Shown: piece by piece, positions 11,963 to 30,123 of the stretch
Position numbering within the stretch: position 1 is the stretch's first letter
Layout: every line of letters starts with the position of its first letter
From: Chlamydiales bacterium
GTDB lineage: Bacteria > Chlamydiota > Chlamydiia > Chlamydiales > SM23-39
Length of the DNA: 32,000 nt
Reading direction: 5' to 3'
Assembly: GCA_965261025.1 (NCBI GenBank)
Contig: OZ253438.1
Coordinates: 1,290,001-1,322,000, forward strand
Translations under genes and position numbers: made by a program
The notes under the pieces: generated by a model
Seen by the model: only the letters and a program-made list of their open reading frames with translations
What the model was told of the DNA's origin: nothing
Databases searched by the model: none

Positions 11963-11973
11963 AGAGTCTTAGT

Positions 11974-12185: not shown

Positions 12186-12266
12186 ATCTTGTAAATCAAA
12201 AGTTAGGCAGATTCTAGGATTTATCCTGTGAGAAAGCCATTTTCAATTGTTATCAGGTAGGTAGTA

Positions 12267-13519: not shown

Positions 13520-13603
13520 ATGCCTTTACAATCCAAAAGCTATTTAAGATTTGGTTGTGTTTTTTTAGGGCTATTTTATGTTTTTTCCTTTCCTGTTCAT
13601 GCA
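13520..13603 (+). other. Sec signal peptide of the autotransporter (aa 1-28)
   Basis: Basic n-region (K6, R10), hydrophobic core FGCVFLGLFYVFSF, and a VHA|T cleavage-like site. Confidence 0.7.
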
Positions 13604-16600: not shown

Positions 16601-19600
16601 GCAGGGGTTTTACAAGGAGACACAGGTAGCATTTTAGGAAATATTGCAAATACAGGATCGGTAATCTTTAATCAAGGAACTACTGGAGCATTTTCGGGGG
16701 ATATTTCCGGAACAGGCTCCATTACGAAACAAGGAGCAGGGACACTGATCCTTTCAGGAAGTAATAGCTATAGCGGGGGAACTACGATTTCAGCGGGAGC
16801 CCTCCAAGGAGATACAACAAGCTTAACCGGGAATATTACTAATAGTAGTTCCTTAGTATTTGATCAGGAATCTCTCGGAACCTTTTCAGGAGATATTTCC
16901 GGAACGGGCTCCGTTACCAAACAAGGAGCAGGGACACTAATCCTTTCAGGAAGTAATAGCTATAGCGGGGGAACTACGATTTCGGTAGGGGCTTTACAAG
17001 GAAATACAACAAGCTTGACAGGAGATATAACCAATAATAGCTCTTTGGTTTTTAATCAAATTAGTACTGGGACTTTTTTGGGGGATATTTCCGGGACGGG
17101 TTCGGTTACTAAGCGAGGAACAGGCGTTCTCATTTTATCAGGCACAAATACTTATAGTGGAGGAACCAATATCAATGCAGGAACATTACGTATTGCAAAC
17201 GATAGTTTACTTGGGAGTGGAGAGGGGGGAGTTACTTTTGGAGGCGGAAATTTAAATACTACAGACACATTTTCTACTGCGAGAAATATTGCTTTATCAG
17301 GAAATGGGGCTTTTGAAGTAGATGCTTCTACAAGTCTAACCTGTAGTGGAGATATTGGTGGTAGTGGGTCGTTAACAAAACTGGGAAGCGGGAATCTTAT
17401 CTTGACAGGCTCTAACAGTTATACCGGGGGAAATATTGTTTCTGCAGGAATTTTACAGGGAGATGCAGGTAGTATTTCGGGGAATATAGCTAATGCAGGA
17501 TCTATTGTATTCAATCAAGAATCTCTCGGAACCTTTTCGGGAGATATTTCAGGGATAGGCTCTGTTACGAAACAAGGGGCGGGGACACTAATCCTTTCAG
17601 GAAGTAATAGCTACAGCGCGGGAACCACAATTTCAGCAGGGACTTTGCAAGGAGATACAACGAGCTTGACAGGAGATATAACCGATAATGCTTCTTTGGT
17701 TTTTACACAAAGTAGTACTGGGACTTTTTTGGGGGATATTTCCGGGACAGGCTCTGTTACCAAACAAGGAGCAGGGACATTAATCCTTTCAGGAAGTAAT
17801 AGCTATAGCGCGGGAACTACGATTTCAGCAGGAGCTCTCCAGGGAAATACAGCAAGCTTAGTAGGAAATATTACCAATAATAGCTCTTTAATATTTGATC
17901 AAGGAACTACCGGAACCTTTTCGGGGGATATTTCCGGGACAGGTTCCGTTACAAAGCAGGGAACAGGCGTTCTCATTTTATCAGGCACAAATACTTATAG
18001 TGGAGGAACCAATATCAATGCGGGAGTGTTGCGTATTGCAAATGATAATTTACTGGGGGATATAGGAGGAGGAGTTACTTTTGGAGGAGGGACTTTACAT
18101 ACTACAGCTACCCTTTCTACTGGAAGAAGTATTGCCTTATCAGGAAATGGCACTTTTGAGGTAAATACCTCTACGAGTTTAACCTGTAGTGGAGCTATTA
18201 GTGGTAGTGGACTGTTAACAAAACTGGGAAGTGGCAATCTCATCTTGACAGGCTCTAACAGCTATACGGGAGGAAATGTTGTTTCAGCAGGAGTTTTGCA
18301 AGGAGATACAAATAGTATCTTAGGAGATATAGCCAATGCAGGATCGGTGGTATTTGATCAGGGAAGCAGTGGGACTTTCTCGGGAGATATTTCCGGAACG
18401 GGTTCCGTTACCAAGCAAGGAGCAGGGACATTAATCCTTTCAGGAAGTAATAGCTATAGCGCGGGAACTACGATTTCAGCGGGGGCTTTGCAAGGAAATG
18501 CAAACAGTATAGTGGGAAATATCACTAACAATAGCTCTTTAATATTTGATCAGGGAACTACCGGAACCTTTTCAGGAAATATCTCCGGGACAGGCTCTGT
18601 CACCAAGCAAGGAGTGGGAACCTTAACTTTTTCAGGAAGTAATAGTTATAGCGGAGGAACTACCATTTCAGGGGGAGCCCTGCAAGGGAATACAGGTACC
18701 ATAGCAGGAAATATTACCAACAATAGCTCTTTAATATTTGATCAGGGAAGCAATGGGACGTTTTCAGGGGATATTTCCGGAACGGGTTCCGTTACCAAGC
18801 AAGGAGCAGGGACATTAATCCTTTCAGGAAGTAATAGCTATAGCGGAGGAACTACCATTTCAGGGGGAGCCCTACAAGGGAATACAGGTACCATAGCGGG
18901 AAATATTACCAACAATAGCTCTTTAATATTTGATCAGGGAACTACCGGAACGTTTTCAGGGGATATTTCCGGGACAGGCTCTGTTACGAAACAAGGAGCA
19001 GGAAGACTTATTTTAGGAGGCAGCAGCAGCTACACCGGGGGGACATCCCTAAATGCTGGAATTTTACAGGTATTCAGTGGGAGCGCTCTAGGAAATAGCA
19101 TAGGAGAAATTGATTTTGCAGGGGGATCTTTGAACACGACTGGAACTTTTACCTTACCACATAATGTTTCGTTATCTTCTGAGGGGATATTTGAAGTGGA
19201 CACTTCGACAACTTTAACCTGTAGCGGTGTTATCAGTGGTAATGGATCTTTGACAAAGCTTGGAAATGGCAGCTTGGTTCTGACTGGATCTAATACTTAT
19301 TTGGGTGGAGCTTCTGTTTCACAAGGGGTTTTGGAAGGTAATACGACAAGTCTTTTCGGTAATACTGTGAATAATGCCGTGCTACGTTTTAACCAGAATT
19401 TTTCAGGATCTTATGGAGGGATTGTTACAGGAACAGGGACGTTAGTTAAAACAGGTTCCGGAAAAAGTATTTTTTCAGGAAATCTTACGCAGAATTTGTT
19501 TTCTGTAGAAGCAGGGACAATGACTGTGAATGGGCAAGTTACAGGTCCAGTTCAAATAGCCTCTTCCGCAGTTTTAGAAGGAAACGGTAGAATAGTAGGT

Positions 19601-21055
19601 AACGTAAACAATAACGGAATCATAGCAGCAGGGAACTCCACTACTTTGGATATACAAGGAGATCTTTCTATGGAAACCGGAAGCTCTTTGAATGTAGTAG
19701 CAGCACCTGATAGTCCCACTCTTCTTGCAGTTACAGGAGAAACATCCATAGGTGATGATACTTCTTTAGTCATATCCTTAGCAGATGCAGATTATAACGC
19801 AGATACTTCTGTTCCCATTTTACAATCAGATGGGGGAATTATTGGTAAATTTAGTGAAGAACTCAATAATATGCCCCTTTTGGGTTTATCGGTTTTATAT
19901 TCACCTACATCTATGGCTTTAGCTTTTTCTCCTGAGGATTTTTCCTCCGTAGCAGAAGGAGAAGATGCAGTAGTATTGGCCAATTATCTAGATGAAATTC
20001 CTTCTAGTGAAATAAATAGTGACTTGCAGCGAGTTATTAATCAGTTATATTCTCTGCCAAGCAGTGCAGAACTGTCTTCTGCTTTGGATCAATTGCAGCC
20101 AGTACAGTTTAGTGGTTTTTCTCTGGCCCAAGAGGAAATTTCTGTAGCTTTATCCCAAAATATTTTTCGTCGAATAGAAGAATTAGTAAACCAACGGGCA
20201 TGTGGACATTTTTGTTCAGGTAAAAGATTTCTTTGGGAAAATTTATTTTATGTGGGCTCTAAACAGAAGAAAGTCTCTGAACACGTTCCTTTCACCACAG
20301 ATACAGAAGGGGTAATTCTTGGAGGAAATGGAACTATTTCGGAGGAGATCATCTTAGGACTTGGCTCTGCTTTTTCTAATACGAATATCGCTTGGAAAGA
20401 AGATAGAGGTAAAGGACAAACTTTGACCGGATATTTATTTATTTATGGGACAGGGTCTTTTTCTCCTGGCTTTATTCGGTGGAATTTTATGGGTGAGTTG
20501 AGTCATTTTCAGGCAAGGAGACGTATTCAGTTTGCTACTATTCACCGTCAAGCAAATCATTCTAATAACGGTCATGGATTTTCTGGATATATAGACTTTG
20601 GCATCTTGGGAAGAAAACACAGAGCTTTTGCAGTGAACCCTTTTGCTAGTATCAATTCTGCCTGGTTTTGGGAAAATTCATACCAAGAAGAGGAGGCAGA
20701 AAGTATAAGTTTATCGGTTCGCAAAAGGAGATTAAATCTTTGGAGATTTGAGGTGGGTTTAGAGCTCTCCGGCTGTTTTGAAACAAAAAAGGCTACTATT
20801 TCTCCGAACTGTAAAGTATTTTGTGCTAAAGAAGTAAGAACTCTTGGAAAAACCTTTACGGCTAGATTTACTTCCGTAGAGCCCTCTTTTAGGGTAACTG
20901 GATTTAATCCCAACAGAGATTATCTCGGTTTTGAGACATATCTAGACGCGTGTTTATTAGATAAATTATTATCGATTCGTTTAGGAGTAAATGGTCAGTT
21001 TGCTAAAAAATACCAACAATATGGTGGAGAACTAAACATAGGACATCATTTTTAA
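13520..21055 (+). CDS. Giant autotransporter adhesin (2511 aa): signal peptide, beta-helix cap, Gly-rich region, PATR-type repeat array, C-terminal beta-barrel
   Basis: Signal peptide MPLQSKSYLRFGCVFLGLFYVFSFPVHA|TD. N-terminal VTNTNDSGAGSLRNAI cap motif. GGAIFV/GGAIFI motifs plus FSSN. Dozens of G.G.L.LSG.N.Y.GGT.I..G.L repeats. ALDQLQP linker. The C-terminal ~290 aa have alternating beta-strand character and end in ...NIGHHF (terminal Phe). Confidence 0.9.
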   Translation: MPLQSKSYLRFGCVFLGLFYVFSFPVHATDFTVTNTNDSGAGSLRNAIDSANSASGGSHQVLFQVDLSGTITLQSSLPTITTKIITIAGPSSGSIIIDGDSTHQGFFIEADVVVAISNLSLQNMRAKGGNGGPGRSGGGGALGAGGAIFVESGADVSISSVAFGSCSAVGGDGGTANTGIRFSGGGGGGGMRNAPGGDVTQSLVSNIGGGGGGGLEGSGGNAQSGGSGGGGKSNRGGDCLSLALITDVGGGGGGGSGENPGETGDIIPGGNGGDGFESSSGGQGGTTAGQDGALGTSGGGGGGGASNIVGASGSGGSGSTPGGGGGGAGTTLLSTGSTTSGTGGGGGKYGGGGGGGGALTSISASVTAGSGGNGGYGSGGGGGGGALVAAGIGSATGGSGGNSTFGGGGGGGGIGFGVTSGGNGGFGGGGGGSGGSTGLGGTAGFGGGNGGNSSNRGGGAGAGLGGAIFIEGSGLVTFSGSGTLFSSNSTTAGTGSDGGADGTASGDDLFIQSGAEIVFAVTDTVTIGSDIASNQSSGGSFSKSNTGTLNLTGNNTFTGNISVSGGTLSIISDNALGVSTNAVSISSGAVLNLSSDMSSSRALTLGSGGGVLNISPSFTTTWSGNISESAVAGFTKDGTGILTLSGTNTYSGGTNINAGTLRIANDNLLGSVGGGVTFGGGTLHTTATLSTGRSIALSGNGTFEVDTSTSLTCSGAISGSGLLTKLGSGNLILTGSNSYTGGNVVSAGVLQGDTTNILGDIANAGSVVFDQGSTGTFSGDISGAGSVTKQGAGTLILSGSNSYSGGTTISAGALQGDTTSLTGNITNSGSLVFDQESLGTFSGDISGTGSVRKQGTGMLIFSGSNSYSGGFTISEGALQGDTTSLTGNITTSGSLVFDQGSTGTFSGDISGTGSLTKQGTGVLILSGTNSYSGGTNINAGTLCIANDSLLGDIGGGITFGGGNLNTTATLSTGRSIALSGNGTFEVDTSTSLTCSGAISGSGLLTKLGSGNLILTGSNSYTGGNVVSAGVLQGDTGSILGNIANTGSVIFNQGTTGAFSGDISGTGSITKQGAGTLILSGSNSYSGGTTISAGALQGDTTSLTGNITNSSSLVFDQESLGTFSGDISGTGSVTKQGAGTLILSGSNSYSGGTTISVGALQGNTTSLTGDITNNSSLVFNQISTGTFLGDISGTGSVTKRGTGVLILSGTNTYSGGTNINAGTLRIANDSLLGSGEGGVTFGGGNLNTTDTFSTARNIALSGNGAFEVDASTSLTCSGDIGGSGSLTKLGSGNLILTGSNSYTGGNIVSAGILQGDAGSISGNIANAGSIVFNQESLGTFSGDISGIGSVTKQGAGTLILSGSNSYSAGTTISAGTLQGDTTSLTGDITDNASLVFTQSSTGTFLGDISGTGSVTKQGAGTLILSGSNSYSAGTTISAGALQGNTASLVGNITNNSSLIFDQGTTGTFSGDISGTGSVTKQGTGVLILSGTNTYSGGTNINAGVLRIANDNLLGDIGGGVTFGGGTLHTTATLSTGRSIALSGNGTFEVNTSTSLTCSGAISGSGLLTKLGSGNLILTGSNSYTGGNVVSAGVLQGDTNSILGDIANAGSVVFDQGSSGTFSGDISGTGSVTKQGAGTLILSGSNSYSAGTTISAGALQGNANSIVGNITNNSSLIFDQGTTGTFSGNISGTGSVTKQGVGTLTFSGSNSYSGGTTISGGALQGNTGTIAGNITNNSSLIFDQGSNGTFSGDISGTGSVTKQGAGTLILSGSNSYSGGTTISGGALQGNTGTIAGNITNNSSLIFDQGTTGTFSGDISGTGSVTKQGAGRLILGGSSSYTGGTSLNAGILQVFSGSALGNSIGEIDFAGGSLNTTGTFTLPHNVSLSSEGIFEVDTSTTLTCSGVISGNGSLTKLGNGSLVLTGSNTYLGGASVSQGVLEGNTTSLFGNTVNNAVLRFNQNFSGSYGGIVTGTGTLVKTGSGKSIFSGNLTQNLFSVEAGTMTVNGQVTGPVQIASSAVLEGNGRIVGNVNNNGIIAAGNSTTLDIQGDLSMETGSSLNVVAAPDSPTLLAVTGETSIGDDTSLVISLADADYNADTSVPILQSDGGIIGKFSEELNNMPLLGLSVLYSPTSMALAFSPEDFSSVAEGEDAVVLANYLDEIPSSEINSDLQRVINQLYSLPSSAELSSALDQLQPVQFSGFSLAQEEISVALSQNIFRRIEELVNQRACGHFCSGKRFLWENLFYVGSKQKKVSEHVPFTTDTEGVILGGNGTISEEIILGLGSAFSNTNIAWKEDRGKGQTLTGYLFIYGTGSFSPGFIRWNFMGELSHFQARRRIQFATIHRQANHSNNGHGFSGYIDFGILGRKHRAFAVNPFASINSAWFWENSYQEEEAESISLSVRKRRLNLWRFEVGLELSGCFETKKATISPNCKVFCAKEVRTLGKTFTARFTSVEPSFRVTGFNPNRDYLGFETYLDACLLDKLLSIRLGVNGQFAKKYQQYGGELNIGHHF
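13900..14920 (+). repeat. Low-complexity GGN-codon (poly-Gly/PGRS-like) region within the autotransporter
   Basis: About 340 codons dominated by Gly runs (GGGGGGG, GGNGG, GGSGG) separated by short variable segments. Includes (GGA)7 at 14069-14089. Bounded by the two GGAIF(V/I) motifs. Boundaries are approximate. Confidence 0.9.
15140..19550 (+). repeat. Array of ~32-aa autotransporter-associated beta-strand (PATR-like) repeats organised as 192-nt (64-aa) double units
   Basis: 192-nt spacing measured twice: 15872 vs 16064 (GSVTKQG / GSVRKQG) and 18651 vs 18843 (gcggaggaac). Consensus is G(T/A)G.LILSGSNSYSGGTTISAGALQG......G.I.N..SL.F.Q...GTFSGDISG. Outer boundaries are approximate. Confidence 0.85.
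15431..18802 (+). repeat. Four tandem in-frame copies of an 843-nt (281-aa) super-repeat
   Basis: The string ggaggaaccaatatcaatgc recurs at 15473, 16316, 17159 and 18002, exactly 843 nt apart. ggaacag unit starts lie at 15431 and 16274. Confidence 0.93.
20000..21052 (+). other. Linker plus autotransporter beta-barrel translocator domain (approximate)
   Basis: SAELSSALDQLQPVQFSGFSLAQEE helix/linker motif, then amphipathic strand-like segments. C-terminal ...GGELNIGHHF ends in an aromatic residue, typical of BAM substrates. Confidence 0.75.
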
Positions 21056-21059
21056 GATT

Positions 21060-22328
21060 TTAAAAAGCTTTTTTAGTCGTTTGAAGTATGTACAGACCCA
21101 GAAAAAGAAATAAAGCGGAAATAGGATAAAATGTATAGATACTGATAGCTCCTGTAAGGGCTCCTAAAATAGGAACTAAGAAAAGCCCTAAGGAGAACAT
21201 GGATTGCGCTATACCCATGGCTTTTCCTTGTACATTAGCAGCAGAGGAAATGGAGATTAAATTAAACGTGGAGCTTAAAGAAACAGCTCCCACAATGGCT
21301 GAGATGGCATAGGTAAAAATAAAAGAGGAAAAATTAGGCATGAAAGCCGCAGCCGTAAGTAATAGGGCGGTTAACAAGTAGGAGAGCTTTGCAATGGACC
21401 AAGTATTCATAAGCCTTAATAAAATAGGATTGACTAAAGAGCCTCCTAAAGCCCATCCAGTTCCTTGAATCATTAGTCCTAAAGTGCTGGTTTTTTGAGA
21501 AATCCCAAAATGTTTTATTACATAGGCTCCATACCAGGTAATAGAGTACCCCCAACCAAGAGTCCATAGCAAAAGCAGGAAAAAGAAGCGTCTCGTATCC
21601 CGCATACGAAGGGCTTCAATAATGTTATGTATTCCCTTGGAAAGATCAATTTTTGTTTTCCCCTCTGCCCTTTGGTAGGTTTCTGAAAAAAAGACTGCTA
21701 AACTAACAAGACTTAACGTAGTAAGAATCCCCGCCACGTAAAAAGGTAAGGAAGGATTGAACCACTTAGAAAGAGAAGGGTCAGAGAGAAATCCTCCTAG
21801 TATTAGAGCAATAGGAAAGCTGACTCCCCATACCACAGTCAAAATGCCGTAATTTCTAGCTCTTTGTTTTTCATTAGGGCTCAAATCAGCAATAGAGGCG
21901 TTACAAAGCCCTTGATTGCCTGAAAACAGACCCGTCAGAAATCGAGCAACGAAAAGCAGGAAAATGCTTTTAACCATCAAAACAAGCCCTGTGAGGAAGT
22001 AGGCTCCGATTACTAAGATAATAGAAACAAAAAAAATCTTTTTTCTCCCATAGCGGTCTGCTAACTCCCCCATGATGGGTGCGCCTATCAATTGCGCTAT
22101 GGGAAAGGCCGCATAGAGAGTGCCTATAGCAAGAAGTTTTGTTGTCAAACTAGGATCTTGTCGTAAAAATCCATAATCTGGATTAAGCAATAAAGAGGGA
22201 AAAAGAACAAAGACCATGGCATAACCACAATTGTCAACAGCTGCAATAAAATAGACAGTAAACAAAGATTTTATTCGGGAGACAGATTTCATTTCTCTTG
22301 TATAGCAAAGGAATGAATAAAAAGTCAA
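21060..22328 (-). CDS. MFS transporter (DHA1/drug:H+ antiporter-like)
   Basis: Twelve-TM-like hydrophobicity. MFS motif A GELADRYGRKK between TM2 and TM3. The ORF-track start at 22328 is TTG; the ATG at 22292 (MKSVSRIKS...) is the more likely start. Confidence 0.85.
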   Translation of the reverse strand: MTFYSFLCYTREMKSVSRIKSLFTVYFIAAVDNCGYAMVFVLFPSLLLNPDYGFLRQDPSLTTKLLAIGTLYAAFPIAQLIGAPIMGELADRYGRKKIFFVSIILVIGAYFLTGLVLMVKSIFLLFVARFLTGLFSGNQGLCNASIADLSPNEKQRARNYGILTVVWGVSFPIALILGGFLSDPSLSKWFNPSLPFYVAGILTTLSLVSLAVFFSETYQRAEGKTKIDLSKGIHNIIEALRMRDTRRFFFLLLLWTLGWGYSITWYGAYVIKHFGISQKTSTLGLMIQGTGWALGGSLVNPILLRLMNTWSIAKLSYLLTALLLTAAAFMPNFSSFIFTYAISAIVGAVSLSSTFNLISISSAANVQGKAMGIAQSMFSLGLFLVPILGALTGAISIYTFYPISALFLFLGLYILQTTKKAF

Positions 22329-22341
22329 AAAAGCGTTTTTT

Positions 22342-23757
22342 TTAACAGATAGTCTTATTATCTCGAACTGCTTTCTTAAAAGAGTTTCCTAAGAAAAGAG
22401 CCACAATGAACCATAGAACCAAAAGAGGGGCACATAAAATAAGACTTAAGGTTAAATAATAAGATCTACCTACAAGCATACCAAAAGTGTTTTGTAGAGG
22501 ACTTAAAGACATATTGAAGATAGAGCCTGCCTGCTTGGAAGATCGGGATCCAAAAGTTTCTATCCAGGCTTGTGCTTTAAATTTTACGTCTGGAGTAGTC
22601 GGGATGTAGAGCTGCTTTAAGGCAGGGCCGTTTAAAGCATAGTTGATTGCCTTAGACCCAACCATCAAACCAAAAAGGAAAGAAAGAGAATCCAAGGTCA
22701 CAAAACCAAAAAGCGCAAAACCTACAATAATAGGCATTAAGGATAAAGCCGTTTTTATACCTAGAAAACGGGTAATATTACTAATCCCTAAAAGCAGACA
22801 CGACAAAGATATGACATTTACAATAGACCCGTAAATGCTTAGGTAATTGCTCAAGGCAACTCCTGAATAGACCGATCCAGCAGCTAGTTTAAAATTAAAA
22901 TCGAATATAGTAACTGCCACTTCATAAATAAAATTGGAAGCAAAAATACACAAAAGATATCGATTCTTTACAAGAAGTTTTAATCCTTCCAAAAAACCGG
23001 GTTCTTGTTTTTTTTCTACTGTTTTTTCATTCCCTCCATGGAAGGCCTGAAGAAGATCTTTAGGAGTTTTTTTTAAAAAGTAGCGGATCATAGGGATAAT
23101 ACAAAGAATGAAAAGGCCCAGGAGAAATATAGAAAGAGAGTCGGTAAGTAGTTTCAATCTGTGAGGGAGCCCCCCTATTCCATAAGGGAAAAGAATGCCT
23201 CCTATTTGTCCAATAGCTACCACCAAGGGAAATCCTCTTTTTGCATGGGAGGGTTCTGTAGTATCCGCTGCAAAAGCCCAAAATAAAGCTACCATCAAAG
23301 AACCAAAGCTTTCCACAAAGAGATACCAAAAATAGCCAATCGCTTGCGTACTCAAAGATCCTAAAAAAGATCCTCTAGCAAGCTGTTCAGAAGAAGCTTG
23401 GAGGAAAAACATTAAAAGACTCATCAGTAAAATGGCAATGCCATAAAAACAAGGTAAGATAATAAGCATCTTCTCTCTGGAAGTTTTTTCTATGAGTTTA
23501 GTGTAAAACATAACCAGAGGTAGAAGAGCTATAACGGAAATAGTTTTAGCAAAGGGGAGTTGGTATTTACCCACGAGATGTATAAAAATAGAGTCCTTCA
23601 AAGGGCGAAGAGTCCAGTAAGCCCCTATGATCAGAGCAAAAATGAGGCCCATTCTTAGAAATTTCTTAAACTCTTCTCTCTCAAAGGTTCCAAAATTAAA
23701 ACGGCAAACCCATTGAAAAAAATCCAGAAGACCTTTTTTTTGTTTCACGAAAACCAT
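22342..23757 (-). CDS. Nucleotide transporter of the NTT/TLC (ATP:ADP antiporter, Npt) family
   Basis: Colinear with recalled chlamydial Npt1: [12 protein letters not shown] vs [53 protein letters not shown] vs [80 protein letters not shown] vs [41 protein letters not shown]. Substrate is unknown. Confidence 0.85.
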   Translation of the reverse strand: [471 protein letters not shown]

Positions 23758-23778
23758 TCCTTTTATTGAATTAAGTCA

Positions 23779-23798
23779 GTTTTTTTAATTAAAAAAAC
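23779..23798. promoter_or_regulatory. Perfect 20-nt A/T palindrome between the GT90 gene stop and the NTT gene start
   Basis: gtttttttaattaaaaaaac is self-complementary over its full length. It could be a weak terminator or an operator; function is unknown. Confidence 0.3.
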
Positions 23799-23865
23799 AT
23801 CTTTTTATAATTAAACAACTAACTTATTTTAGAAATAGTTTTCAAGTTAAAATAAAATTAAACAG

Positions 23866-25047
23866 TCATTTTTGAATCTTTTTAGGGTTTTTCTTAAGTC
23901 TTTCTAGTTTTTTTTGTAGTTTAGACTCTCTCTTTTCTGTCTTGACCCGGATCTCTCCTGGAGGAAGAGTAGGGGTAAATTTTTGTAAAGAGGCATATTT
24001 TTTTAAGACTTTGTAACAATAAAGGCAGCAGTGTTCAGGCAAAAGACTCTCCTGAGCAAGCTTCCTTCCCTGCATAGCAATTTTTTTTGCTTCTGCATCA
24101 TTTTGTTTGCACCATTCGATTTTTTCTATGAGATCACTTAGATCCTCCTCTATAGGGACATAGTGAACCCAGGGCTTTAGAGGATAAAAGTACCACATTT
24201 TATTTTTAGATTTCTGCTTTAAAACAGTACAATTAGACAAAAGCCTCCACTGAAGACCTGGGTATGTGGCAGTATGCCCGTCTACATTCACTTGATACTT
24301 AAATCTTAAGTGTTCCCTGACAGATAAAAAGGGCTTATGAGGATCAAATCCTGTGTTACGAATAATCCTTTGCACAGAAGTTTCAAGCCAATTAGTCCCT
24401 GCATTAAGGTGATGAGGATATACGCTAGATAAATAACATAACTTTCCTCTAGGGGTTTCAAAAAATCCCCTTGGAGAGTAGTCATACTGGTAGCCTTGAA
24501 GGCCTCCCCGCCATATAGCAGTAGGAATTTTGCTTTCCCAAGGAAGCTCTTTACTGGTCTGCTCCACTAAGATAGAGTTGTAAGTCCAGTCATAGGCTTC
24601 GGAGCAGTGCTCCGGATCTGTCCGAGTAGGGTCAAAGTTCCAATCTGCAAAATAGATGACATGGGTAAAATCTTCGTGTTTCGTGCTGGCTAATACGGGT
24701 CCATCTACAGTAGGGGGATTTCTTTCTCCTCTGGGGCCTCGAACAAAACCATCTTCCACCAAATAAAGAAACTCCACATCGGGTATCGTGTATTTTCGGC
24801 AAAGAACTGACAAAAGGTTATGAGTTTTTCCTGAGGGTCCATAGACTTTATTATCAATGATCTTAAAGCGAACATAACGGTGCCATTGGGGAGAGGCTTT
24901 CTCTATCATCTCCAGAGTAATCCCAGAAGAAAAGGGGGAGAAATCTTTTTCGATTGCCTCGTCCATCCAATCGTTAGGGCCGGCCCAGGACAAAGAGCAG
25001 AAAAAAAGAAAGAAAGAAAAAAAACAGCGCTTCATGAAAAACCTCAA
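23866..25047 (-). CDS. GT90/CAP10-domain glycosyltransferase, POGLUT1 (Rumi)-like protein O-glucosyltransferase homologue with an N-terminal signal peptide
   Basis: Colinear with recalled human POGLUT1 (392 aa): [17 protein letters not shown] vs [29 protein letters not shown] vs [34 protein letters not shown] vs [39 protein letters not shown] vs VKANDDVAQEIAERGSQ. The ORF-track start is TTG at 25047 (TTGA overlap with the upstream stop). The ATG at 25035 has gagg 6 nt upstream and gives [19 protein letters not shown]. Confidence 0.85.
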   Translation of the reverse strand: [393 protein letters not shown]

Positions 25048-25835
25048 GAATTTAATTTGTCATATAATTTATAGAAAACAGGCTTGCCTTTTCCTCCATT
25101 TCCATGGAAGATACTCGGATAAGTATTCGTTTCTTTTAGGCGAACTTCCCCTTTTTTTACTTTTAATTCCTTGAGATCTACATCAAATAGACTGCAAAAT
25201 ATCTCGCAGGAGGTATCCAGATAAATCAGGTCTGAGTGGTTTACATAATAAGTTTGATATAGAGCTTGATCACTGTGCATGCCAGGAAGAATTTCGGAGA
25301 TAACTTCTTCTAACATAGCCTTTAAAGCGCCTGCATACCCTATGAATCCTCCTGCATTCAAATACTTAAAAGAAGTACGGGCCTTTTGAAAGTAGGGTTT
25401 TAAATGGGTTTGGGGATAGCAATTTCTTTCTGTGGAGAAGACAATAGGAGCTTTCTTTTCCAAGAATTTCTCAACAATCTTTTTCTGTCCTGCACAAAAA
25501 AAGACATCACAGGCATCCACGCAGACAACAATATCTTCGTCAGGAAGAGTCTTGATAAATTCATAAAACCAAATCGGTTTGGTAACATTTCCTCCCCAAG
25601 AAGTAGCTTCCTTTCCTATGTGGGTAAGGGAGATTCCGTGTTTTTCAGCAGAGTCAAAAAGACGAGACATGTAGGTATAAGGATCTTTACCGGGATAACA
25701 TCCTACAGTGCAGAAGTGAGCTTTTCCCTTTTTTTCTTTCCAGATATTCTTCTGTCTTATCAAGGAGGTATTATTGTGCGCAAAGAGAGAGGGGAAAAAA
25801 AACCCTAAAATAAGAACAAAACGGTACCATTTCAT
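25044..25835 (-). CDS. Lysyl hydroxylase 3 (PLOD)-type N-terminal glycosyltransferase-domain homologue, signal-anchored, with no hydroxylase domain
   Basis: Matches to the recalled LH3 GT domain: DEDIVVCVDACDVFF vs REDMIIMFVDSYDVIL (DxxD conserved); IVFSTERNCYPQ vs LLFSAESFCWPE; FKYLNAGGFIGYAG vs KRFLNSGGFIGFAT; SDQALYQTYY vs DDQLFYTRLY; YPSIFHGNGG vs LPIVVHGNG. The ATG at 25835 forms an ATGA overlap with the upstream stop, with ggggga SD-like sequence upstream. The ORF track begins at TTG 25850. N-terminus MKWYRFVLILGFFFPSLFA. Confidence 0.8.
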   Translation of the reverse strand: MKWYRFVLILGFFFPSLFAHNNTSLIRQKNIWKEKKGKAHFCTVGCYPGKDPYTYMSRLFDSAEKHGISLTHIGKEATSWGGNVTKPIWFYEFIKTLPDEDIVVCVDACDVFFCAGQKKIVEKFLEKKAPIVFSTERNCYPQTHLKPYFQKARTSFKYLNAGGFIGYAGALKAMLEEVISEILPGMHSDQALYQTYYVNHSDLIYLDTSCEIFCSLFDVDLKELKVKKGEVRLKETNTYPSIFHGNGGKGKPVFYKLYDKLNS

Positions 25836-26680
25836 GAATCTTTCCCCCAATTTTTTCCATCTAAATGAGTCACAAAAGGCCCCTCTCCATAAGATCCGTA
25901 CAAGAAGACCCCAAACTCTTTGTATTTATTAGGGTCTTTTACACAAGCATTTCGGATGGGGTGTGCTAGCTCCCATTCCATAGCAATGGGTCTATTTCCC
26001 ACTCGAGGGAAGACAAAAGTCTCGTAGTACTTTTTAGAGGTTAGGTGTTCATGGTCAGACCAGTTATAAGAGATACAAAGAGGAATATGAGAAGGACCTT
26101 CATAAGGAATGGCTGCTACTTGCGCTGTTCCATAAGGTATATTTTTTGCGCGAGTAAAGTGAACGTATTGGATAAAGGGGTTTCTTTCCATAGAGCTCAT
26201 AACTCCTTCTAGGTCCAAAGGTTTTTCCAAAACAAAATCATGTTGATGGACAAAGATAAAAGGAGTCTTTACAAAAGAAAGAGCCTCCCTTAAAGCCCCT
26301 GTTAAGTGGCCATGCTCTTTCAAAAAAACCAGCAAAGTATTCTTAAAATAGGGGCTCTCTTCTATAAGTTTTCTGCACCCTTTCTTATACCCCTCGTAAG
26401 CCGTTTTTAAGAAAACTCCCTTTCTCATTTCTAATGAGTAGAACTTTTTAGGTGGCTCATCAAAAACAATAATCTTTGGCATACTCTCAAAGCCAGGCTG
26501 CTGATACCAACTTTTAAAGGAGGTTTCTAAAAGCTCTGTACTAGGATGGCCAGGAACGGCGCTAGTATTGGTAATAAACGTGATTCGAGAAGAAGAAGAG
26601 TCTAGAGTGCCGTAAGTTTCTACGTTAATAGAAAACCCCGTAGAGAACCCTAAAAAGAATAAAAAAAGAAAAAACTTCAT
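25832..26680 (-). CDS. Secreted/anchored protein of unknown family, possibly a GT-A-fold (GT2-like) glycosyltransferase with a non-canonical QHD in place of DxD
   Basis: Signal peptide MKFFLFLFFLGFSTGFS. The layout resembles a GT-A fold: ITFITNTSAVPGHPSTELLETSFKS (beta1/alpha1), PKIIVFDEPP, HGHLTGALREALSFVKTPFIFVHQHDFVL (equivalent to N.G...ARN.G...A.G.YI.FLD.DD). GGAG SD lies 5 nt (catt-a spacing) upstream of the ATG. Family assignment is weak. Confidence 0.4.
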   Translation of the reverse strand: MKFFLFLFFLGFSTGFSINVETYGTLDSSSSRITFITNTSAVPGHPSTELLETSFKSWYQQPGFESMPKIIVFDEPPKKFYSLEMRKGVFLKTAYEGYKKGCRKLIEESPYFKNTLLVFLKEHGHLTGALREALSFVKTPFIFVHQHDFVLEKPLDLEGVMSSMERNPFIQYVHFTRAKNIPYGTAQVAAIPYEGPSHIPLCISYNWSDHEHLTSKKYYETFVFPRVGNRPIAMEWELAHPIRNACVKDPNKYKEFGVFLYGSYGEGPFVTHLDGKNWGKDS

Positions 26681-26901
26681 AATGCTCCGAATTTTTTTTT
26701 GCAGAGGTTGTATTTCTTTTTTCCTTTTTCAGTCAATTCTTTTTTACCTGGTAAATAGGAAGTTCTTTTCAATGAATCGGATTAAAGTAATGAGGAAAAA
26801 AAGCAGAAAACCAGTAAATAACTTCGTTTTCCCTTTTTTCAAAGAGGGGGGAGTTGACTTTTTTTTCAGAAAAAGTCTTTTTAAGAAAAAAGGATAGAAA
26901 A

Positions 26902-27762
26902 ATGGAGGAAGAAACCCCTATTCGGGGAGTAGTTTATGGTATCTTTATGGCCTTGGCTTATTCCCTCATGGCAATCTTTGTAAAACTTACCAAAGACACT
27001 CCGAATCAAGTTATCGTATTTTATCGCAGTATGATAGCTCTTTTTTTTATCTCTCCTTGGCTTTATAGGAAGAAAAACGAATTAGGAGGAAGGAAAAAGT
27101 ACCTTTACTGGATAAGAAGTTTATCAGCACTTTTTGCTGTATATTGCTATTTCTATAGCCTAAAGCACCTTTCTTTGTTAAACAGTATCCTCTTAGCTAA
27201 CACCGCACCTCTTTTTGTACCTTTAGTTATTTGGCTTTGGCTAAAAAAAAGAATTGCTACAAAAAGGATTCTTTCGATTTGTATAGGATTTCTGGGGGTA
27301 GTTCTCCTTTTGCAGCCCACTTCAAAAGGATGGGGCTTAGCTACCCTTATAGGGTTGGGGACAGGCCTTTTTTCCGCTATTGCCCTTGTAGGGGTAAGGC
27401 AATTAACCAAAACAGAAAAACCTCTTTCGATATTGTTTTATTTCTTTCTCCTTTCTGCTTTTCTCTCTTTTTTCCCCTTCGTGATAGGAGGGGAGCTTTT
27501 CCCGGAGAAGGGAGAAAGGCTCTACGTCTTAGCTACTGGCCTTATGTCAATAATCTATCAGTTTTTTATTACAAAGACCTATACCTCCCTCCCTCCCTCC
27601 AAGGCAGCGGGCTTTTTGTATCTTAGCCTAGTTTTTGGAGGCTTTTTCGACTGGATTTTATGGGGTAAGTTATTCACCTACAGTACATTGCTTGGGGTTA
27701 TTTTTGTAGCTGTGGGAGGATTTTTGACTCTTTATGAAAAGCCTAAGATATTTTTCAAATAA
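26902..27762 (+). CDS. EamA/DMT-superfamily transporter (10-TM, two EamA repeats)
   Basis: MEEETPIRGVVYGIFMALAYSLMAIFVKL..., typical EamA helices and the NTAPLFVPLVIWLWLKKR mid-protein junction. The ORF track starts at TTG 26854; the ATG at 26902 is preferred. Transcribed divergently from the GT operon. Confidence 0.8.
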   Translation: MEEETPIRGVVYGIFMALAYSLMAIFVKLTKDTPNQVIVFYRSMIALFFISPWLYRKKNELGGRKKYLYWIRSLSALFAVYCYFYSLKHLSLLNSILLANTAPLFVPLVIWLWLKKRIATKRILSICIGFLGVVLLLQPTSKGWGLATLIGLGTGLFSAIALVGVRQLTKTEKPLSILFYFFLLSAFLSFFPFVIGGELFPEKGERLYVLATGLMSIIYQFFITKTYTSLPPSKAAGFLYLSLVFGGFFDWILWGKLFTYSTLLGVIFVAVGGFLTLYEKPKIFFK

Positions 27763-27887
27763 TTTTTATATATTAATATAATATTAAAATAATTATTATA
27801 TATTTATATTTAATAAAATAGTTTATTTTTAATTAAATTTTTATTATAATATTTCTTGTTATAGAAAATTATAAACAAGGAAATTTT
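27763..27887 (+). promoter_or_regulatory. Extreme A+T tract plus an imperfect palindrome overlapping the SD of the downstream gene
   Basis: nt 27763-27854 contain a single G and no C by my reading. cttgtt (27855-60) pairs with aacaag (74-79) around an A/T loop. The aagga SD at 27877-81 overlaps the right arm. ATG is at 27888. Confidence 0.45.
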
Positions 27888-28430
27888 ATGTCTAACCAAT
27901 TAGAAATAGCAAATCAAGTGGCTCCAAGCTATTTGGAGAGAGCTTCTTGGGGTCTTACAAGTGGGGCATGCCGAGCGGGATATACGCTTTTACCTGAAGT
28001 AAGAGAAGGAGTTTCTTATAAAAATATAGCAAAGGTAGCTGTATTAGGATACACTACTCTCCAGCTTGTTGCTATAGCTGCCATCGCTTTAAAATATGCC
28101 GCCTTAGTTGGGGCTTTTTATCTAGTTATGAACTCTTATCAAAAACAAAGTGCAACCAATCGTGTAATTCAAGACGTACAGGGTCATTCCCAAGAGCTTG
28201 TAGGAAATATAAACAAAATCATAGAACTACTAACTGTGAGGTTTGGTCTCATAGCTGTCTCACCTGCTCTTCAAGCTATCCAAGAACAATCAGAAAAGGT
28301 AATAGAAGAAAAAGAAAAACTAGAAGAAGAAAACGAAAAGTTAAAACAACAAATAAAAGAATTTGAAAATAGAATCTCCCAACAAAGAGACCTTTCTAAG
28401 ATTCTTTCTGCCGGATTTTTTGTTCAATAA
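27888..28430 (+). CDS. Hypothetical membrane protein with a bilobed hydrophobic domain and C-terminal coiled coil (Inc-like)
   Basis: VAVLGYTTLQLVAIAAIALKYAALVGAFYLVMNSY forms two hydrophobic lobes split by a short turn. The C-terminus EKVIEEKEKLEEENEKLKQQIKEFENRISQQ is heptad-like. This architecture is typical of chlamydial inclusion-membrane proteins; no sequence homologue was recognised. Confidence 0.45.
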   Translation: MSNQLEIANQVAPSYLERASWGLTSGACRAGYTLLPEVREGVSYKNIAKVAVLGYTTLQLVAIAAIALKYAALVGAFYLVMNSYQKQSATNRVIQDVQGHSQELVGNINKIIELLTVRFGLIAVSPALQAIQEQSEKVIEEKEKLEEENEKLKQQIKEFENRISQQRDLSKILSAGFFVQ

Positions 28431-28441
28431 GAGTAAAAAAG

Positions 28442-29479
28442 TCAAACTAGAGATTCAAGAAGAAGAGAAAAATCTCCTTTTTTCTCTTCTTTTTTTTGTG
28501 TTCCTAAAAAAAGAATTTTTTCTGAAAGAGTTTCCAGGCCCTCTTCCTTTTCTGCGGAGATAGGATAAAGGGAAAGAGTTGGGTATTTCTCGAAAAAGAG
28601 TTTTTCCCAAGACTTGGATTCCGGAAGATCGATTTTGTTTAATGCTACCAAAAGGGGTTTTTTTAGCACCTCTGGATTATAATGAGAGATTTCCTTCTTT
28701 AATTTCTCAAAGTCCTCTAAAGGGGATCTTCCTTCTCTTGCTGAGATGTCCAAGACAAACACCAAGGCAGAAGTTCTTTCTATATGCTTTAAGAAAGAAA
28801 GTCCCAAACCTCTATTTTCATGAGCTCCTTCAATAATTCCCGGAATATCTGCTAATAAAACCTTTTGATATCCCTTTTGATAAAAGCCTAAGTTGGGAGT
28901 TAAGGTAGTGAAGGGATAAGGAGCAATCTTTACCGGAATGTGGGTCAACTTTGACAAAAGGGTAGATTTTCCCGCATTAGGCATCCCCACAAACCCCACG
29001 TCTGCAATAAGCTTAAGCTCAATTTCTATCTCAAGAGATTCCCCATCAGTTCCTTCCGTGCAAAAATCAGGAGACCTTCTTTGGGCATTTTTGAAGAAAG
29101 CATTCCCTTTGCCCCCTTTTCCTCCCTGGCAAAGAAGGTATTCTTGCCCTTCTTGCGTAAAATCAAAAAGCAACGTCTTGGAATAGGCTTCCCTGACGAC
29201 TGAGCCTATAGGAAGAAGAAGACACAAATCCCGGCCAGATTTCCCCTGCTGAAGGGAAGGTCCCCCTTGAGATCCTTTTTCTGCTTGAATCACCCGGGTA
29301 TTTCGAAACTCTTCTAAAGAATAGACCTGAGAAGAGGCCTTTAGCAGAATAGAAGCTCCTTTGCCTCCATTTCCTCCAGATGGGCCTCCTTTGGGAATGT
29401 ATTTTTCCCTCCGCCAGGCAACGGTACCATTTCCTCCCTTTCCTGCGAAAAGCTTTAGTTTGATCTGATCGACAAACAT
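28442..29479 (-). CDS. obg: GTPase Obg/CgtA
   Basis: Obg fold MFVDQIKLKLFAGKGGNGTVAWRREKYIPKGGPSGGNGGKGASI. G1 GMPNAGKST, G3 DIPGIIEGA, G4 NKID. Confidence 0.95.
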   Translation of the reverse strand: MFVDQIKLKLFAGKGGNGTVAWRREKYIPKGGPSGGNGGKGASILLKASSQVYSLEEFRNTRVIQAEKGSQGGPSLQQGKSGRDLCLLLPIGSVVREAYSKTLLFDFTQEGQEYLLCQGGKGGKGNAFFKNAQRRSPDFCTEGTDGESLEIEIELKLIADVGFVGMPNAGKSTLLSKLTHIPVKIAPYPFTTLTPNLGFYQKGYQKVLLADIPGIIEGAHENRGLGLSFLKHIERTSALVFVLDISAREGRSPLEDFEKLKKEISHYNPEVLKKPLLVALNKIDLPESKSWEKLFFEKYPTLSLYPISAEKEEGLETLSEKILFLGTQKKEEKKGDFSLLLESLV

Positions 29480-29497
29480 ACCTTTCGCCTCAAAAGA

Positions 29498-29755
29498 TCA
29501 CGCTTTTTCAGAGGGGAGAACTGATACCAAAGTCTTTTTTTTCTTTTCAAAGTGAACCTTTCCATCAATTTTTGCAAAGATAGAAAAATCCCTACCCAAT
29601 CCTACATTTTGAGCAGGATGCCATTTGGTGCCAGTTTGTCTTACAATAATACTTCCCACCGTGACAAACTCTCCTTCTGAGGCCTTGATTCCATGCCTTT
29701 TAGAGTGAGAATCTCTTCCGTTTTTCGTCGAGCCCTGTCCTTTCTTATGTGCCAT
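29498..29755 (-). CDS. rpmA: 50S ribosomal protein L27
   Basis: [24 protein letters not shown]...[28 protein letters not shown] matches L27. Confidence 0.96.
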
Positions 29756-29759
29756 TTAT

Positions 29760-30071: not shown

Positions 30072-30123
30072 TGCCTGCCTCCCATTAGAGGCCCTCCATG
30101 ATAGCGAAAAGTCTTTGCTAAAG

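Follow-up and report, generated by a model that had tools for sequence, protein, structure and literature searches.

Gene content of the locus

A minus-strand open reading frame at exactly 23866–25047 of the 32,000-nucleotide stretch of DNA analysed here (hereafter, the window) encodes a glycosyltransferase of the GT90 (CAP10/POGLUT) family, referred to below simply as GT90. An alternative TTG at 25047 would give a product of 393 aa; the in-frame ATG at 25035, which has GAGG ~8 nt upstream, is most likely the start codon, and the corresponding 389-aa product is identical to a deposited protein (P0001; NCBI/ENA, 1,422,118-bp contig). The gene is intact and native-like in composition, and GC and GC3 of the three glycosyltransferase (GT) genes at the locus are like those of their neighbours, so that there is no sign of recent horizontal transfer. 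The genes considered here are the following.

22342–23757, minus strand: highly divergent TLC/NTT-family transporter (PF03219, E = 9e-24), directly downstream of GT90
23866–25035, minus strand: GT90 (CAP10/POGLUT-family) glycosyltransferase, 389 aa from the ATG at 25035
25044–25835, minus strand: PLOD/LH3-type GT-A glycosyltransferase (PLOD-GT), 263 aa, with signal peptide (PF25342, E = 9e-31)
25832–26680, minus strand: putative GT2-like GT-A glycosyltransferase, 282 aa, with signal peptide (fold search)
26902–27762, plus strand: EamA/DMT-superfamily transporter (PF00892, E = 3e-28), divergent from the three-GT unit

The three GT genes are arranged in the order GT-A, PLOD-GT, GT90, with GT90 last, and each product carries a signal peptide. 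The 3' end of the 282-aa GT-A gene overlaps the start of the PLOD-GT gene, 9 nt separate the PLOD-GT stop codon from the GT90 ATG, and there is no terminator between the genes; co-transcription as a single unit is the best reading. A PLOD-GT::GT90 fusion protein also exists (P0090). The same gene order is kept in three genomes, namely, the source genome and those of the related loci L001 (73% identity) and L012 (64%), L001 being the sole relative returned by the scan of genome contigs.

The PLOD-GT product, which is identical to P0367, scored 107 bits against PF25342 (cut-off 27), and its best PDB matches were the mimivirus R699 collagen glucosyltransferase (E = 3e-18) and human LH3 (E = 1e-13). 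Residues D107-x-x-D110, E136, N160, D189-Q190 and H244 correspond to D83/D86, E114, N138, D163-Q164 and H216 of R699; as judged from this alignment, the active site of PLOD-GT is intact. The 282-aa protein had no match in Pfam, NCBIfam or PDB sequence searches. It has 738 representative homologues, and its AF2 model (pLDDT 90.5) matched POMGnT1, SpsA, RmlT and TarP in Foldseek at E~1e-7 with TM 0.45–0.51; D74 and Q146-H147-D148 are nearly invariant in 70 homologues. Classified by fold search alone, this neighbour is a putative GT-A fold protein with an Asp-containing DxD-type motif, and it fell into no CAZy family.

The TLC/NTT-like transporter scored 70 bits against TIGR00769 (cut-off 387). 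It is found at the same position in L001 and not in L012, where a sugar nucleotidyltransferase, cytoplasmic and without a signal peptide, lies directly downstream of GT90; because of this replacement, the transporter was ruled out as a conserved component. The arrangement of the EamA transporter, a member of the superfamily that includes the eukaryotic nucleotide-sugar transporters, is likewise the same in L001. Roles for the TLC/NTT-like and the EamA transporter in the three-GT system are hypothetical.

The GT90 gene is bacterial (Chlamydiota), neither viral nor eukaryotic. SecY is ~70% identical to its counterparts in Chlamydiia/Chlamydiales MAGs, and an Inc-like protein is encoded at 27888–28430. 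A viral origin was considered and ruled out, the flanks (ribosomal operon, secY, obg and others) being Chlamydiota-type; the scan of viral contigs yielded no relative, and BFVD contained distant GT90 folds only, in NCLDVs and phages. A literature search returned no paper connecting Chlamydiae with GT90 or protein O-glucosyltransferases.

Family, fold and phylogenetic placement of GT90

GT90 matched Pfam PF05686 (Glyco_transf_90) at E = 3.9e-42 (145 bits; gathering cut-off 24), and the match spans residues 31–373, i.e. profile positions 12–345 of 396. When the AF2 model (pLDDT 92.7, pTM 0.89) was used as a Foldseek query, the top matches were POGLUT2 (9w47; E = 1.5e-22, TMq 0.70), POGLUT1 and Rumi (5l0t, TMq 0.72/TMt 0.78; 5f84, TMq 0.70), followed by generic GT-B enzymes at TM<0.4. 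GT90 is a full-length member of the GT90/CAP10 family, and its modelled GT-B fold is superimposable on the solved structures of the family. The original prediction of a near full-length enzyme homologous to the POGLUTs was correct, with the homology extending across the whole catalytic domain; the N-terminal and C-terminal blocks that it quoted all occur in GT90 and, in the HMMER comparison, line up with human POGLUT1, whose third block reads NDDVAQEIAERG.

The label 'POGLUT1/Rumi-like' given in that prediction did not hold, POGLUT2/3 being closer both by sequence and in the tree. HMMER searches against PDB sequences gave E = 2e-28 for POGLUT2, 1e-15 for POGLUT1 and 1e-12 for Rumi; POGLUT3 homologues matched at E~1e-26, with ~31% identity over ~86–90% of the query, and a Rumi homologue matched at E = 1e-9. 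In a neighbor-joining (NJ) tree, built without support values from a sample consisting of matches to the GT90 query alone, GT90 belongs to a monophyletic bacterial clade beside POGLUT2/3, with POGLUT1/Rumi outside. Thus, an orthologue of POGLUT1/Rumi was ruled out, and the best reading of the sequence comparisons is that the GT90 clade, bacterial and mostly Chlamydiota, and the animal POGLUT2/3 catalytic domain are sister groups.

Substitutions in the GT90 active site

Three segments of the gene cover the residues of interest.

24751–24753, minus strand: codon of D95, which equals the catalytic base POGLUT2 D238 / POGLUT1 D133 in alignments
24448–24510, minus strand: W-R176-G177 ... R196, with R176 equal to POGLUT2 R308 and R196 to R316 (diphosphate region)
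24244–24261, minus strand: Y258-P259-G260 ... W263-R264, with Pro replacing a eukaryote-invariant Arg

Columns were counted in an alignment of 36 bacterial clade sequences with 16 eukaryotic sequences. Asp occupies the D95 column in 35 of the 36 bacterial and all 16 eukaryotic sequences, and D95, R176, G177, R196 and H291 are invariant, or nearly so, across bacterial and eukaryotic members. The roles of active-site residues in the family have been set by mutagenesis and structures (PMC13084666, PMC5543122); in POGLUT2, R310, R316 and R376 bind the diphosphate and are each essential by mutagenesis (PMC13084666). Only R316 of this triad (R196) is kept in GT90. The R310 column is occupied by G178, and a clade-specific insertion of 12–14 aa follows WRG in the segment that contains R176 and R196; in POGLUT1, the R310 column holds Ser, with Arg one position later. 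At the P259 column (POGLUT2 R376; the 'SFR' Arg of POGLUT1), 33/36 bacterial sequences have Pro compared to Arg in 16/16 eukaryotic sequences. Five residues downstream, at the R264 column, Arg or Lys is present in 32/36 bacterial sequences vs. Leu in 16/16 eukaryotic ones. Alignment of the active site, the check proposed with the original prediction, thus gave a mixed outcome: the catalytic Asp and two Arg are conserved, whereas two of the three POGLUT2-essential Arg (R310, R376) are not. Given the absence of R310 and R376, donor binding must differ, or could be impaired.

Termini of GT90 and predicted export

Both termini of GT90 have distinct features.

24979–25035, minus strand: signal-peptide-like N-terminus, residues 1–19, with a basic n-region, a hydrophobic core and no acidic residue
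23869–23958, minus strand: Lys-rich C-terminal extension, ~residues 360–389, missing in the two closest orthologues

The N-terminus starts with two basic residues (MKR-), followed by a core with KD ~2.5 (2.48) and by S-W-A before the break, which is the form of a Sec-type signal peptide, as originally predicted. The same kind of N-terminus is present in the GT90 orthologues of L001 and L012, and all nine orthologous GTs of the three loci have signal-peptide-like N-termini, as called with simple rules rather than a trained predictor. GT90 contains 10 Cys, and the GT90 and PLOD-GT orthologues contain 8–13.

A KDEL-like tail is absent, as had been claimed, and the C-terminus reads ...KKIQK. The Lys-rich tail pointed out at the same time is present, but, as a feature, it is a lineage-specific extension of 30 codons: in the DNA alignment, the GT90 genes of L001 and L012 stop directly after ...LQxFxPxL, which ruled out a conserved targeting signal for the GT90 orthologue group. 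In the AF2 model, the extension is a helix (pLDDT 70–82). Basic tails recur in some distant clade members (P0008, P0020).

Search for acceptors

No C-x-S-x-(P/A)-C or POGLUT2/3-type motif was found in the real genes of the window. The sole match in the motif scan (7161–7178) falls in a 50-codon out-of-frame segment inside secY, in agreement with the original statement that the window encodes no EGF-like acceptor. Likewise, the real genes of 11 related loci contain no EGF-type acceptor motifs, neither the window nor L001 contains a collagen-like or EGF-like gene, and no lysyl hydroxylase is encoded in the window. A 2511-aa PATR autotransporter was considered as a collagen-like candidate due to a loose G-x-x match and was rejected, the Gly-rich stretch being poly-Gly. 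A collagen-like protein beside GT90 was observed in a single case, L008, which belongs to a distant subclade; there, three GT90 paralogues in the same Obg-L27-L21-ABC3 neighbourhood adjoin a collagen-like protein with a signal peptide.

A candidate extracytoplasmic pathway and its alternatives

The export signals, together with the operon shared with two exported sugar-transferases, point to the assembly of a short sugar chain outside the cytoplasm as the probable task of GT90. We assign a probability of about one half to the reading that GT90 is an active, Sec-exported, inverting GT-B enzyme in a pathway of three enzymes whose product is a short O-linked glycan. The three enzymes would act outside the cytoplasm, in the periplasm or possibly in the inclusion lumen, with nucleotide sugars, most simply UDP-Glc or UDP-Xyl, as donors. 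D95 of GT90 would deprotonate the acceptor hydroxyl, which would then attack C1 of the donor to yield a beta-linked sugar, while the diphosphate would be held by R176, R196 and, probably, the clade-specific R264. The PLOD-like retaining enzyme would then add alpha-1,2-glucose to the sugar made by GT90, similarly to the action of R699/LH3 on Gal/Glc-hydroxylysine; R699 makes Glc-alpha1,2-Glc/Gal. The 282-aa GT-A enzyme could extend the chain by another residue or, instead, begin it. The acceptor would most likely be a secreted or surface bacterial protein, e.g. collagen-like or repeat-rich, rather than an EGF repeat. Counting against an exported pathway, the bacterial periplasm has no obvious nucleotide-sugar supply for Leloir glycosyltransferases; the nucleotidyltransferase of L012, which ties the unit to nucleotide sugars, is cytoplasmic. 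A precedent for extracytoplasmic UDP-Glc comes from chlamydiae, in which this nucleotide sugar enters the inclusion lumen by import and serves as substrate for a bacterial enzyme secreted into it (PMC4829429).

It is conceivable, although we consider it somewhat unlikely, that GT90 modifies a glycan or glycolipid, such as the lipooligosaccharide (LOS) core, a capsule-like polymer or a periplasmic glucan, rather than a protein. Modification of glycans is performed by, or presumed of, fungal GT90 xylosyltransferases and the Xanthomonas pisi GT90 apiosyltransferase. The latter (XpApiT) adjoins a GT2 enzyme in a sugar operon and presumably decorates a glycan (PMC6193724). Among the distant clade members, L005 and L011 are clusters of polysaccharide type that contain GT4, GT2, GT17, WcbI, methyltransferases and sugar-nucleotide enzymes, suggestive of glycan acceptors for at least some members of the clade; in L002, tandem GT90 genes lie near other glycan GTs, and in the P0014 contig, the GT90 gene is a few kb from lpxB. 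However, the closest characterised relatives of GT90, by both sequence and fold, are protein O-glucosyltransferases, and in its operon it is partnered with a homologue of a protein (collagen) glucosyltransferase. Furthermore, the assembly of LOS and capsule from nucleotide sugars normally takes place on the cytoplasmic face, yet the three enzymes carry signal peptides, and the chlamydial LOS biosynthesis genes are absent from the GT90 locus.

Another reading, which we regard as unlikely, is 'ER-lumen-like' protein O-glycosylation in the bacterial extracytoplasmic space. Under this scenario, three Sec-exported Leloir GTs (one GT90 and two GT-A) would produce a glycan initiated with Glc or Xyl and extended with alpha-1,2-glucose on a surface or collagen-like protein, with the nucleotide sugar provided by the TLC-like or EamA/DMT transporter, or by the host. 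The phosphate site would be rewired, with Pro259 in place of the canonical Arg and R264 as the substitute.

A secreted mimic of POGLUT1/2/3 that O-glucosylates EGF-like repeats, either of the host or of a bacterial protein encoded elsewhere, is the reading implied by the original prediction. It would fit the homology to POGLUT1/2 and the common fold, which extend across the entire catalytic domain, as well as the conserved catalytic Asp, the signal peptide and the eukaryotic host of chlamydiae. We find this improbable: EGF-type acceptor motifs are lacking in the window and the related loci, the GT90 donor site is rewired, the filamin domain that stabilises POGLUT2/3 is missing, and a Sec signal alone gives no delivery to the ER lumen of the host, the site of EGF-repeat folding. 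In addition, F338 of POGLUT2 packs against the hydrophobic patch of EGF (PMC13084666), and the corresponding position is not conserved in the clade, with the alignment being uncertain there.

The chances are similarly slim that the hydrophobic N-termini are uncleaved anchors and the three enzymes face the cytoplasm as ordinary GTs using the nucleotide sugars of the bacterium itself, an arrangement that would solve the problem of donor supply and is consistent with the cytoplasmic sugar-nucleotide enzymes encoded beside GT90 in L012 and L011. The basic residues that precede the hydrophobic core place the C-terminal domain outside under the positive-inside rule; the cores, short at ~13–15 residues, lead into small residues like those of typical cleavage sites; and the Cys content of the GT90 and PLOD-GT orthologues resembles that of their ER-luminal, disulfide-bonded relatives.

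Finally, a catalytically dead GT90, i.e. a pseudo-enzyme or sugar-nucleotide-binding protein, could be suspected from Pro259 and Gly178 at the positions of POGLUT2 R376 and R310, given that R376A and R310A retain <5% activity (PMC13084666), but is very improbable because the Pro, common to 33 of the 36 sequences of a diverse clade and paired with the clade-specific Arg/Lys264, looks like a conserved alternative architecture rather than decay, the R310 column lacks Arg in POGLUT1 as well, conservation remains strong for the catalytic Asp and the other active-site motifs, and the gene is intact.

With the exported three-enzyme pathway as the preferred reading, the locus represents a compact, testable system in an obligate intracellular bacterium: it combines an exported GT90, the donor site of which is naturally altered, with two genetically coupled partners, a homologue of a collagen glucosyltransferase and a third transferase. 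Should the enzymes work outside the cytoplasm, nucleotide-sugar-dependent glycosylation would be possible in the bacterial periplasm or the pathogen vacuole, and chlamydiae would be expected to have a new class of surface or secreted glycoproteins. Exchange between eukaryotes and bacteria as the origin of the POGLUT2/3 catalytic domain would also become open to study. If the acceptor is a glycan, the gene is simply one more uncharacterised bacterial GT90.

Comparison with known systems

To our knowledge, GT90 enzymes are understood only in animals (O-glucosylation of Notch and fibrillin) and fungi (capsule xylosylation), and the bacterial members are essentially uncharacterised. Among solved structures, POGLUT2/POGLUT3 (KDELC1/KDELC2; 9w47) are the best match to GT90 both by sequence and by Foldseek. 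D238, R308-G309 and R316 of POGLUT2 correspond to D95, R176-G177 and R196, and the C-terminal LxPWxHYxP...DLSDL...W...D.EA..IA motifs are shared with POGLUT2/3. The differences from POGLUT2 are the replacement of R310 by Gly and of R376 by Pro, the 12–14-aa insertion after WRG and the unconserved F338 position. Unlike GT90, POGLUT2/3 have an N-terminal filamin domain (GT90 has no PF00630 match) and KDEL, and the ~150 N-terminal residues of the eukaryotic proteins have no counterpart in GT90, whereas GT90 is bacterial, has a Sec signal peptide and is encoded in an operon with two GT-A enzymes.

POGLUT1/Rumi (5l0r, 5f84) resemble GT90 in being single-domain GT-B enzymes of similar length (TMt 0.75–0.78) with a catalytic Asp (D133), and the N-terminal I-E-x-D-[LF]-x-P-F..GI block and the C-terminal blocks align. 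GT90 differs from them in the replacement of the 'SFR' Arg by Pro, the absence of an ER-retention tail and its separate placement in the NJ tree. XpApiT, the sole biochemically studied bacterial GT90 (PMC6193724) and compared here by description, is similarly a bacterial GT90/CAP10 enzyme encoded in an operon with a GT-A (GT2-type) transferase; unlike GT90, it is CAP10-like in its C-terminal ~200 aa only, has low similarity to PF05686 and has a UDP-apiose synthase in its operon (PMC6193724).

PLOD-GT shares PF25342 and the DxxD Mn site with mimivirus R699 and the GT domain of human LH3 (PLOD3), and the residues that contact the donor and the first sugar (E, N, DQ, H) are kept. In contrast to R699 and LH3, which have a second (accessory) Rossmann domain, PLOD-GT has one domain only, of 263 aa, along with a signal peptide, and at the positions of W118 and D162 it has Tyr and Ser, respectively.

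The GT90 gene and its product

23866..25047, minus strand: GT90 ORF, 393 codons counted from TTG
25035-23866, minus strand: GT90 gene from the preferred ATG start, 389 aa

The minus-strand ORF of the original prediction exists and matches the GT90 family (PF05686, Glyco_transf_90) over residues 31-373 (Pfam, E = 3.9e-42; 145 bits, cut-off 24). The blocks previously aligned by eye with human POGLUT1 are reproduced by HMMER, the N-terminus is shaped like a Sec signal peptide and the C-terminus is Lys-rich without KDEL, as had been claimed. The ATG at 25035 is more likely than the TTG to be the translation start because inspection places GAGG ~8 nt 5' of it and the 389-aa product is identical to a deposited NCBI/ENA protein (P0001, carried on a 1,422,118-bp contig); residue numbers refer to this 389-aa form. 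The closest orthologues, in a MAG locus (L001) and on a contig (L012), end right after ...LQxFxPxL, and the window ORF runs 30 A-rich codons further, which argues that the Lys-rich tail is a lineage-specific extension. Neutral read-through could explain the tail, as could a local adaptation, e.g. binding to anionic surfaces; a function is possible because short basic tails also occur in some distant members of the GT90 clade.

The AlphaFold2 model of GT90, made from 52 homologues, is confident (pLDDT 92.7, pTM 0.89). When compared with PDB structures, it matched human POGLUT2 (9w47; E = 1.5e-22, TMq 0.70), human POGLUT1 (5l0t; TMq 0.72, TMt 0.78) and Drosophila Rumi (5f84; TMq 0.70), with TM<0.4 for the remaining GT-B enzymes. 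By sequence, GT90 is nearer to POGLUT2/3 than to POGLUT1, and the label "POGLUT1/Rumi-like" originally given to it is not supported: PDB sequence matches were E = 2e-28 for POGLUT2, 1e-15 for POGLUT1 and 1e-12 for Rumi, and in the protein search POGLUT3 homologues scored ~1e-26 and a Rumi homologue 1e-9. A neighbour-joining tree (313 well-occupied columns, no support values, sampled from hits to the window GT90 only) joins the bacterial GT90s in one clade adjoining the animal POGLUT2/3 clade, with POGLUT1/Rumi-type sequences outside. Unlike POGLUT2/3, which carry a filamin domain and a KDEL signal, the window GT90 has neither. The ~40 nearest matches (31-73% identity) are unnamed metagenomic or chlamydial proteins, including 'MAG Chlamydiales' and Candidatus Rhabdochlamydia porcellionis ('glycosyl transferase family 90'); GT90 folds are also found in large DNA viruses and phages.

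A conserved three-gene glycosyltransferase unit

GT90 is the final gene of a tight minus-strand unit of three genes, which overlap or sit 9 nt apart, with no terminator-like site found between them.

26680-25832, minus strand: 282-aa GT-A-fold protein (AlphaFold2 model and fold matches), signal peptide
25835-25044, minus strand: 263-aa PLOD/LH3-type glycosyltransferase (PLOD-GT), signal peptide, PLOD GT domain PF25342, E = 9e-31
22342-23757, minus strand: downstream of the unit, a highly divergent transporter of the TLC/NTP-NDP exchange superfamily (Pfam 85 bits; TIGR00769 70 bits, cut-off 387)
21060-22328, minus strand: Tet-like MFS transporter, next after the TLC-like gene

Sequence searches of Pfam, NCBIfam and PDB gave no match to the 282-aa protein; its model, which is confident (pLDDT 90.5), has a predicted GT-A fold resembling POMGnT1, SpsA, RmlT and TarP in the fold search. 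At E<=1e-3 its family, likewise without a Pfam model, numbers 738 cluster representatives, and some members are fusions with GT2, GT47 or TPR domains; D74 and Q146-H147-D148 are almost invariant in the family. The best solved relatives of PLOD-GT are human LH3 and mimivirus R699 (E = 3e-18); the latter, a galactosyl-hydroxylysyl glucosyltransferase of collagen, produces kojibiose as well (PMC12279948). The Mn-binding D83/D86 of R699 correspond to the DxxD residues D107 and D110 of PLOD-GT, and its E114, N138, D163-Q164 and H216 to E136, N160, D189-Q190 and H244.

The three-gene order is kept in L001 (GT90 73% identical, PLOD-GT in two copies) and L012 (GT90 64% identical). The window and L001 share a very divergent TLC-like transporter downstream; upstream, both have an EamA transporter gene that is transcribed divergently. 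The TLC-like position is kept only in this closest genome, and in L012 a sugar nucleotidyltransferase (2212-2766; PF00483, E = 1e-12) follows GT90 instead. In a 575-aa fusion (P0090; L006/L007 1088-2815, two ~3-kb metagenomic contigs), an Ala/Gly-rich linker connects a PLOD-type GT domain with a distant GT90 domain. The glycosyltransferase genes match their neighbours in GC and GC3 and so show no sign of having been acquired recently.

Host genome and wider gene contexts

13520-21055, plus strand: autotransporter-type protein, 2511 aa, signal peptide, 20 PATR repeats (PF12951, E = 1e-190)
27888-28430, plus strand: Inc-like protein, 180 aa, ~40-residue bilobed hydrophobic segment, then Glu/Lys-rich coiled coil

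The window opens with a ribosomal-protein/secY/rpoA block, whose SecY shares ~70% identity with proteins from MAGs of Chlamydiia, Chlamydiales and Parachlamydiales and 89% with that of one uncultured relative only. The 180-aa protein has no Pfam family, and its predicted architecture is typical of chlamydial inclusion-membrane (Inc) proteins. Given SecY identity, the TLC/NTT-type transporter, the PATR autotransporter and the Inc-like protein, the genome is that of an uncultured member of Chlamydiota, not of a virus or eukaryote. In L001, a 162-aa ORF without a Pfam match (5863-6351) occupies the position of the 180-aa protein.

The autotransporter, a possible surface glycoprotein candidate, has PATR repeats in near-identical ~200-aa super-repeats and a beta-domain-like C-terminal region; its poly-Gly/Ser-rich N-terminal ~450 residues raise local GC to 0.53 and GC skew to 0.54. 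Its adjacency to the glycosyltransferase operon is not kept in L001. GC skew is strongly positive, 0.16-0.41, over 1-20000, with 0.54 in the Gly-rich stretch at 14-15 kb and nearly all genes on the plus strand, and about zero from 21 kb (21000-32000), where gene orientation changes.

Among other GT90-related loci, L002 has tandem GT90 genes and other glycosyltransferases nearby, L004 (Rhabdochlamydia) a lone gene near ankyrin proteins, and L005 and L011 have GT90 within polysaccharide-type clusters. Such polysaccharide-type contexts, together with the precedent of XpApiT (PMC6193724), would suit a glycan or lipooligosaccharide as the GT90 acceptor, a tentative reading to which we give about half the weight of our own. 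On a related chlamydial contig (L008 5329-10396), three GT90 paralogues, two in tandem across an assembly gap, are followed by a small ABM-like protein and a collagen-like protein (234 aa, signal peptide, PF01391, BclA-like layout) containing GPKGPRGPQGVQG... and GPKGPRGPQGVQGVPGQQG...; the Obg-L27-L21-ABC3 neighbourhood of these genes is shared with the window. This collagen neighbour fits the PLOD-GT homologue, as a single case from a subclade without a PLOD-GT neighbour. It is the one exception: neither the window nor L001 nor any other locus searched yielded a collagen-like or EGF-like gene, in line with the earlier statement that the window encodes no EGF-like acceptor.

The GT90 active site

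The catalytic base is D238 in POGLUT2, whose R310, R316 and R376 contact the diphosphate (PMC13084666), and D133 in POGLUT1 (PMC5543122). These residues were mapped onto the alignments via PDB chain numbering.

Active-site columns in 36 bacterial-clade and 16 eukaryotic sequences (POGLUT residue; window GT90; occurrence)
POGLUT2 D238 / POGLUT1 D133, catalytic base; D95; Asp 35/36 bacterial, 16/16 eukaryotic
POGLUT2 R308-G309; R176-G177; bacterial R 35/36, G 36/36, eukaryotes invariant
POGLUT2 R316; R196; invariant in both
POGLUT2 R310; G178; bacterial clade variable, POGLUT2/3 Arg, POGLUT1 Ser, then Arg
POGLUT2 R376 (Arg of POGLUT1 'SFR'); P259; Pro 33/36 bacterial, Arg 16/16 eukaryotic
Eukaryotic Leu; R264; Arg/Lys 32/36 bacterial, Leu 16/16 eukaryotic

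The likeness to POGLUTs thus extends to part of the active site: D95, R176-G177 and R196 are kept, whereas G178 and P259 replace R310 and R376. A 12-14-residue insertion after W-R-G is confined to the bacterial clade. That GT90 is a true EGF-directed POGLUT mimic with host proteins as targets is improbable, as the acceptor motif was not found in the window or the related loci and acceptor-site and donor-site residues are not conserved. Signal-peptide-like N-termini occur in all nine glycosyltransferases of the window, L001 and L012 (9/9); a membrane-anchored enzyme facing the cytoplasm appears equally doubtful. A dead enzyme is very unlikely: the intact base and consistent clade-wide Pro/Arg swap have the look of a donor site built differently, not of one in decay.

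Proposed pathway

The GT90 family assignment is already present in public annotation of related genomes; in the literature, we found no paper linking Chlamydiae with GT90 or protein O-glucosyltransferases. Beyond annotation, the analysis adds placement by POGLUT2/3 rather than POGLUT1, replacement of an essential Arg across the bacterial clade, a conserved three-gene signal-peptide glycosyltransferase unit including a collagen-glucosyltransferase homologue, and a collagen-like neighbour of GT90 in one relative.

We favour, with a probability of about one half for the model as a whole, an exported GT90, PLOD-GT and the GT-A enzyme building a glycan together; the core, a predicted active, exported GT90 in an operon of three glycosyltransferases, stands on much firmer ground than the donor, step order and acceptor. 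GT90 would be an exported, inverting transferase in which D95 activates the acceptor hydroxyl and R176, R196 and probably R264 hold the nucleotide diphosphate. The beta-linked sugar would be extended by the PLOD-like enzyme, by homology a retaining alpha-1,2-glucosyltransferase, and the GT-A enzyme would add a further, or possibly the first, residue. Speculatively, the neighbouring TLC-like or EamA transporter may also supply the donor.

Nucleotide sugars outside the cytoplasm are unusual in bacteria. A precedent exists in chlamydiae: a co-opted host transporter brings UDP-Glc into the lumen of the inclusion, where secreted GlgA uses it (PMC4829429). The proposed arrangement parallels the known two-step system of collagen Hyl-Gal-Glc, as well as the two-step extension of EGF O-Glc, which is carried out by two GT-A xylosyltransferases, and differs from both in pairing GT90 with PLOD-GT.
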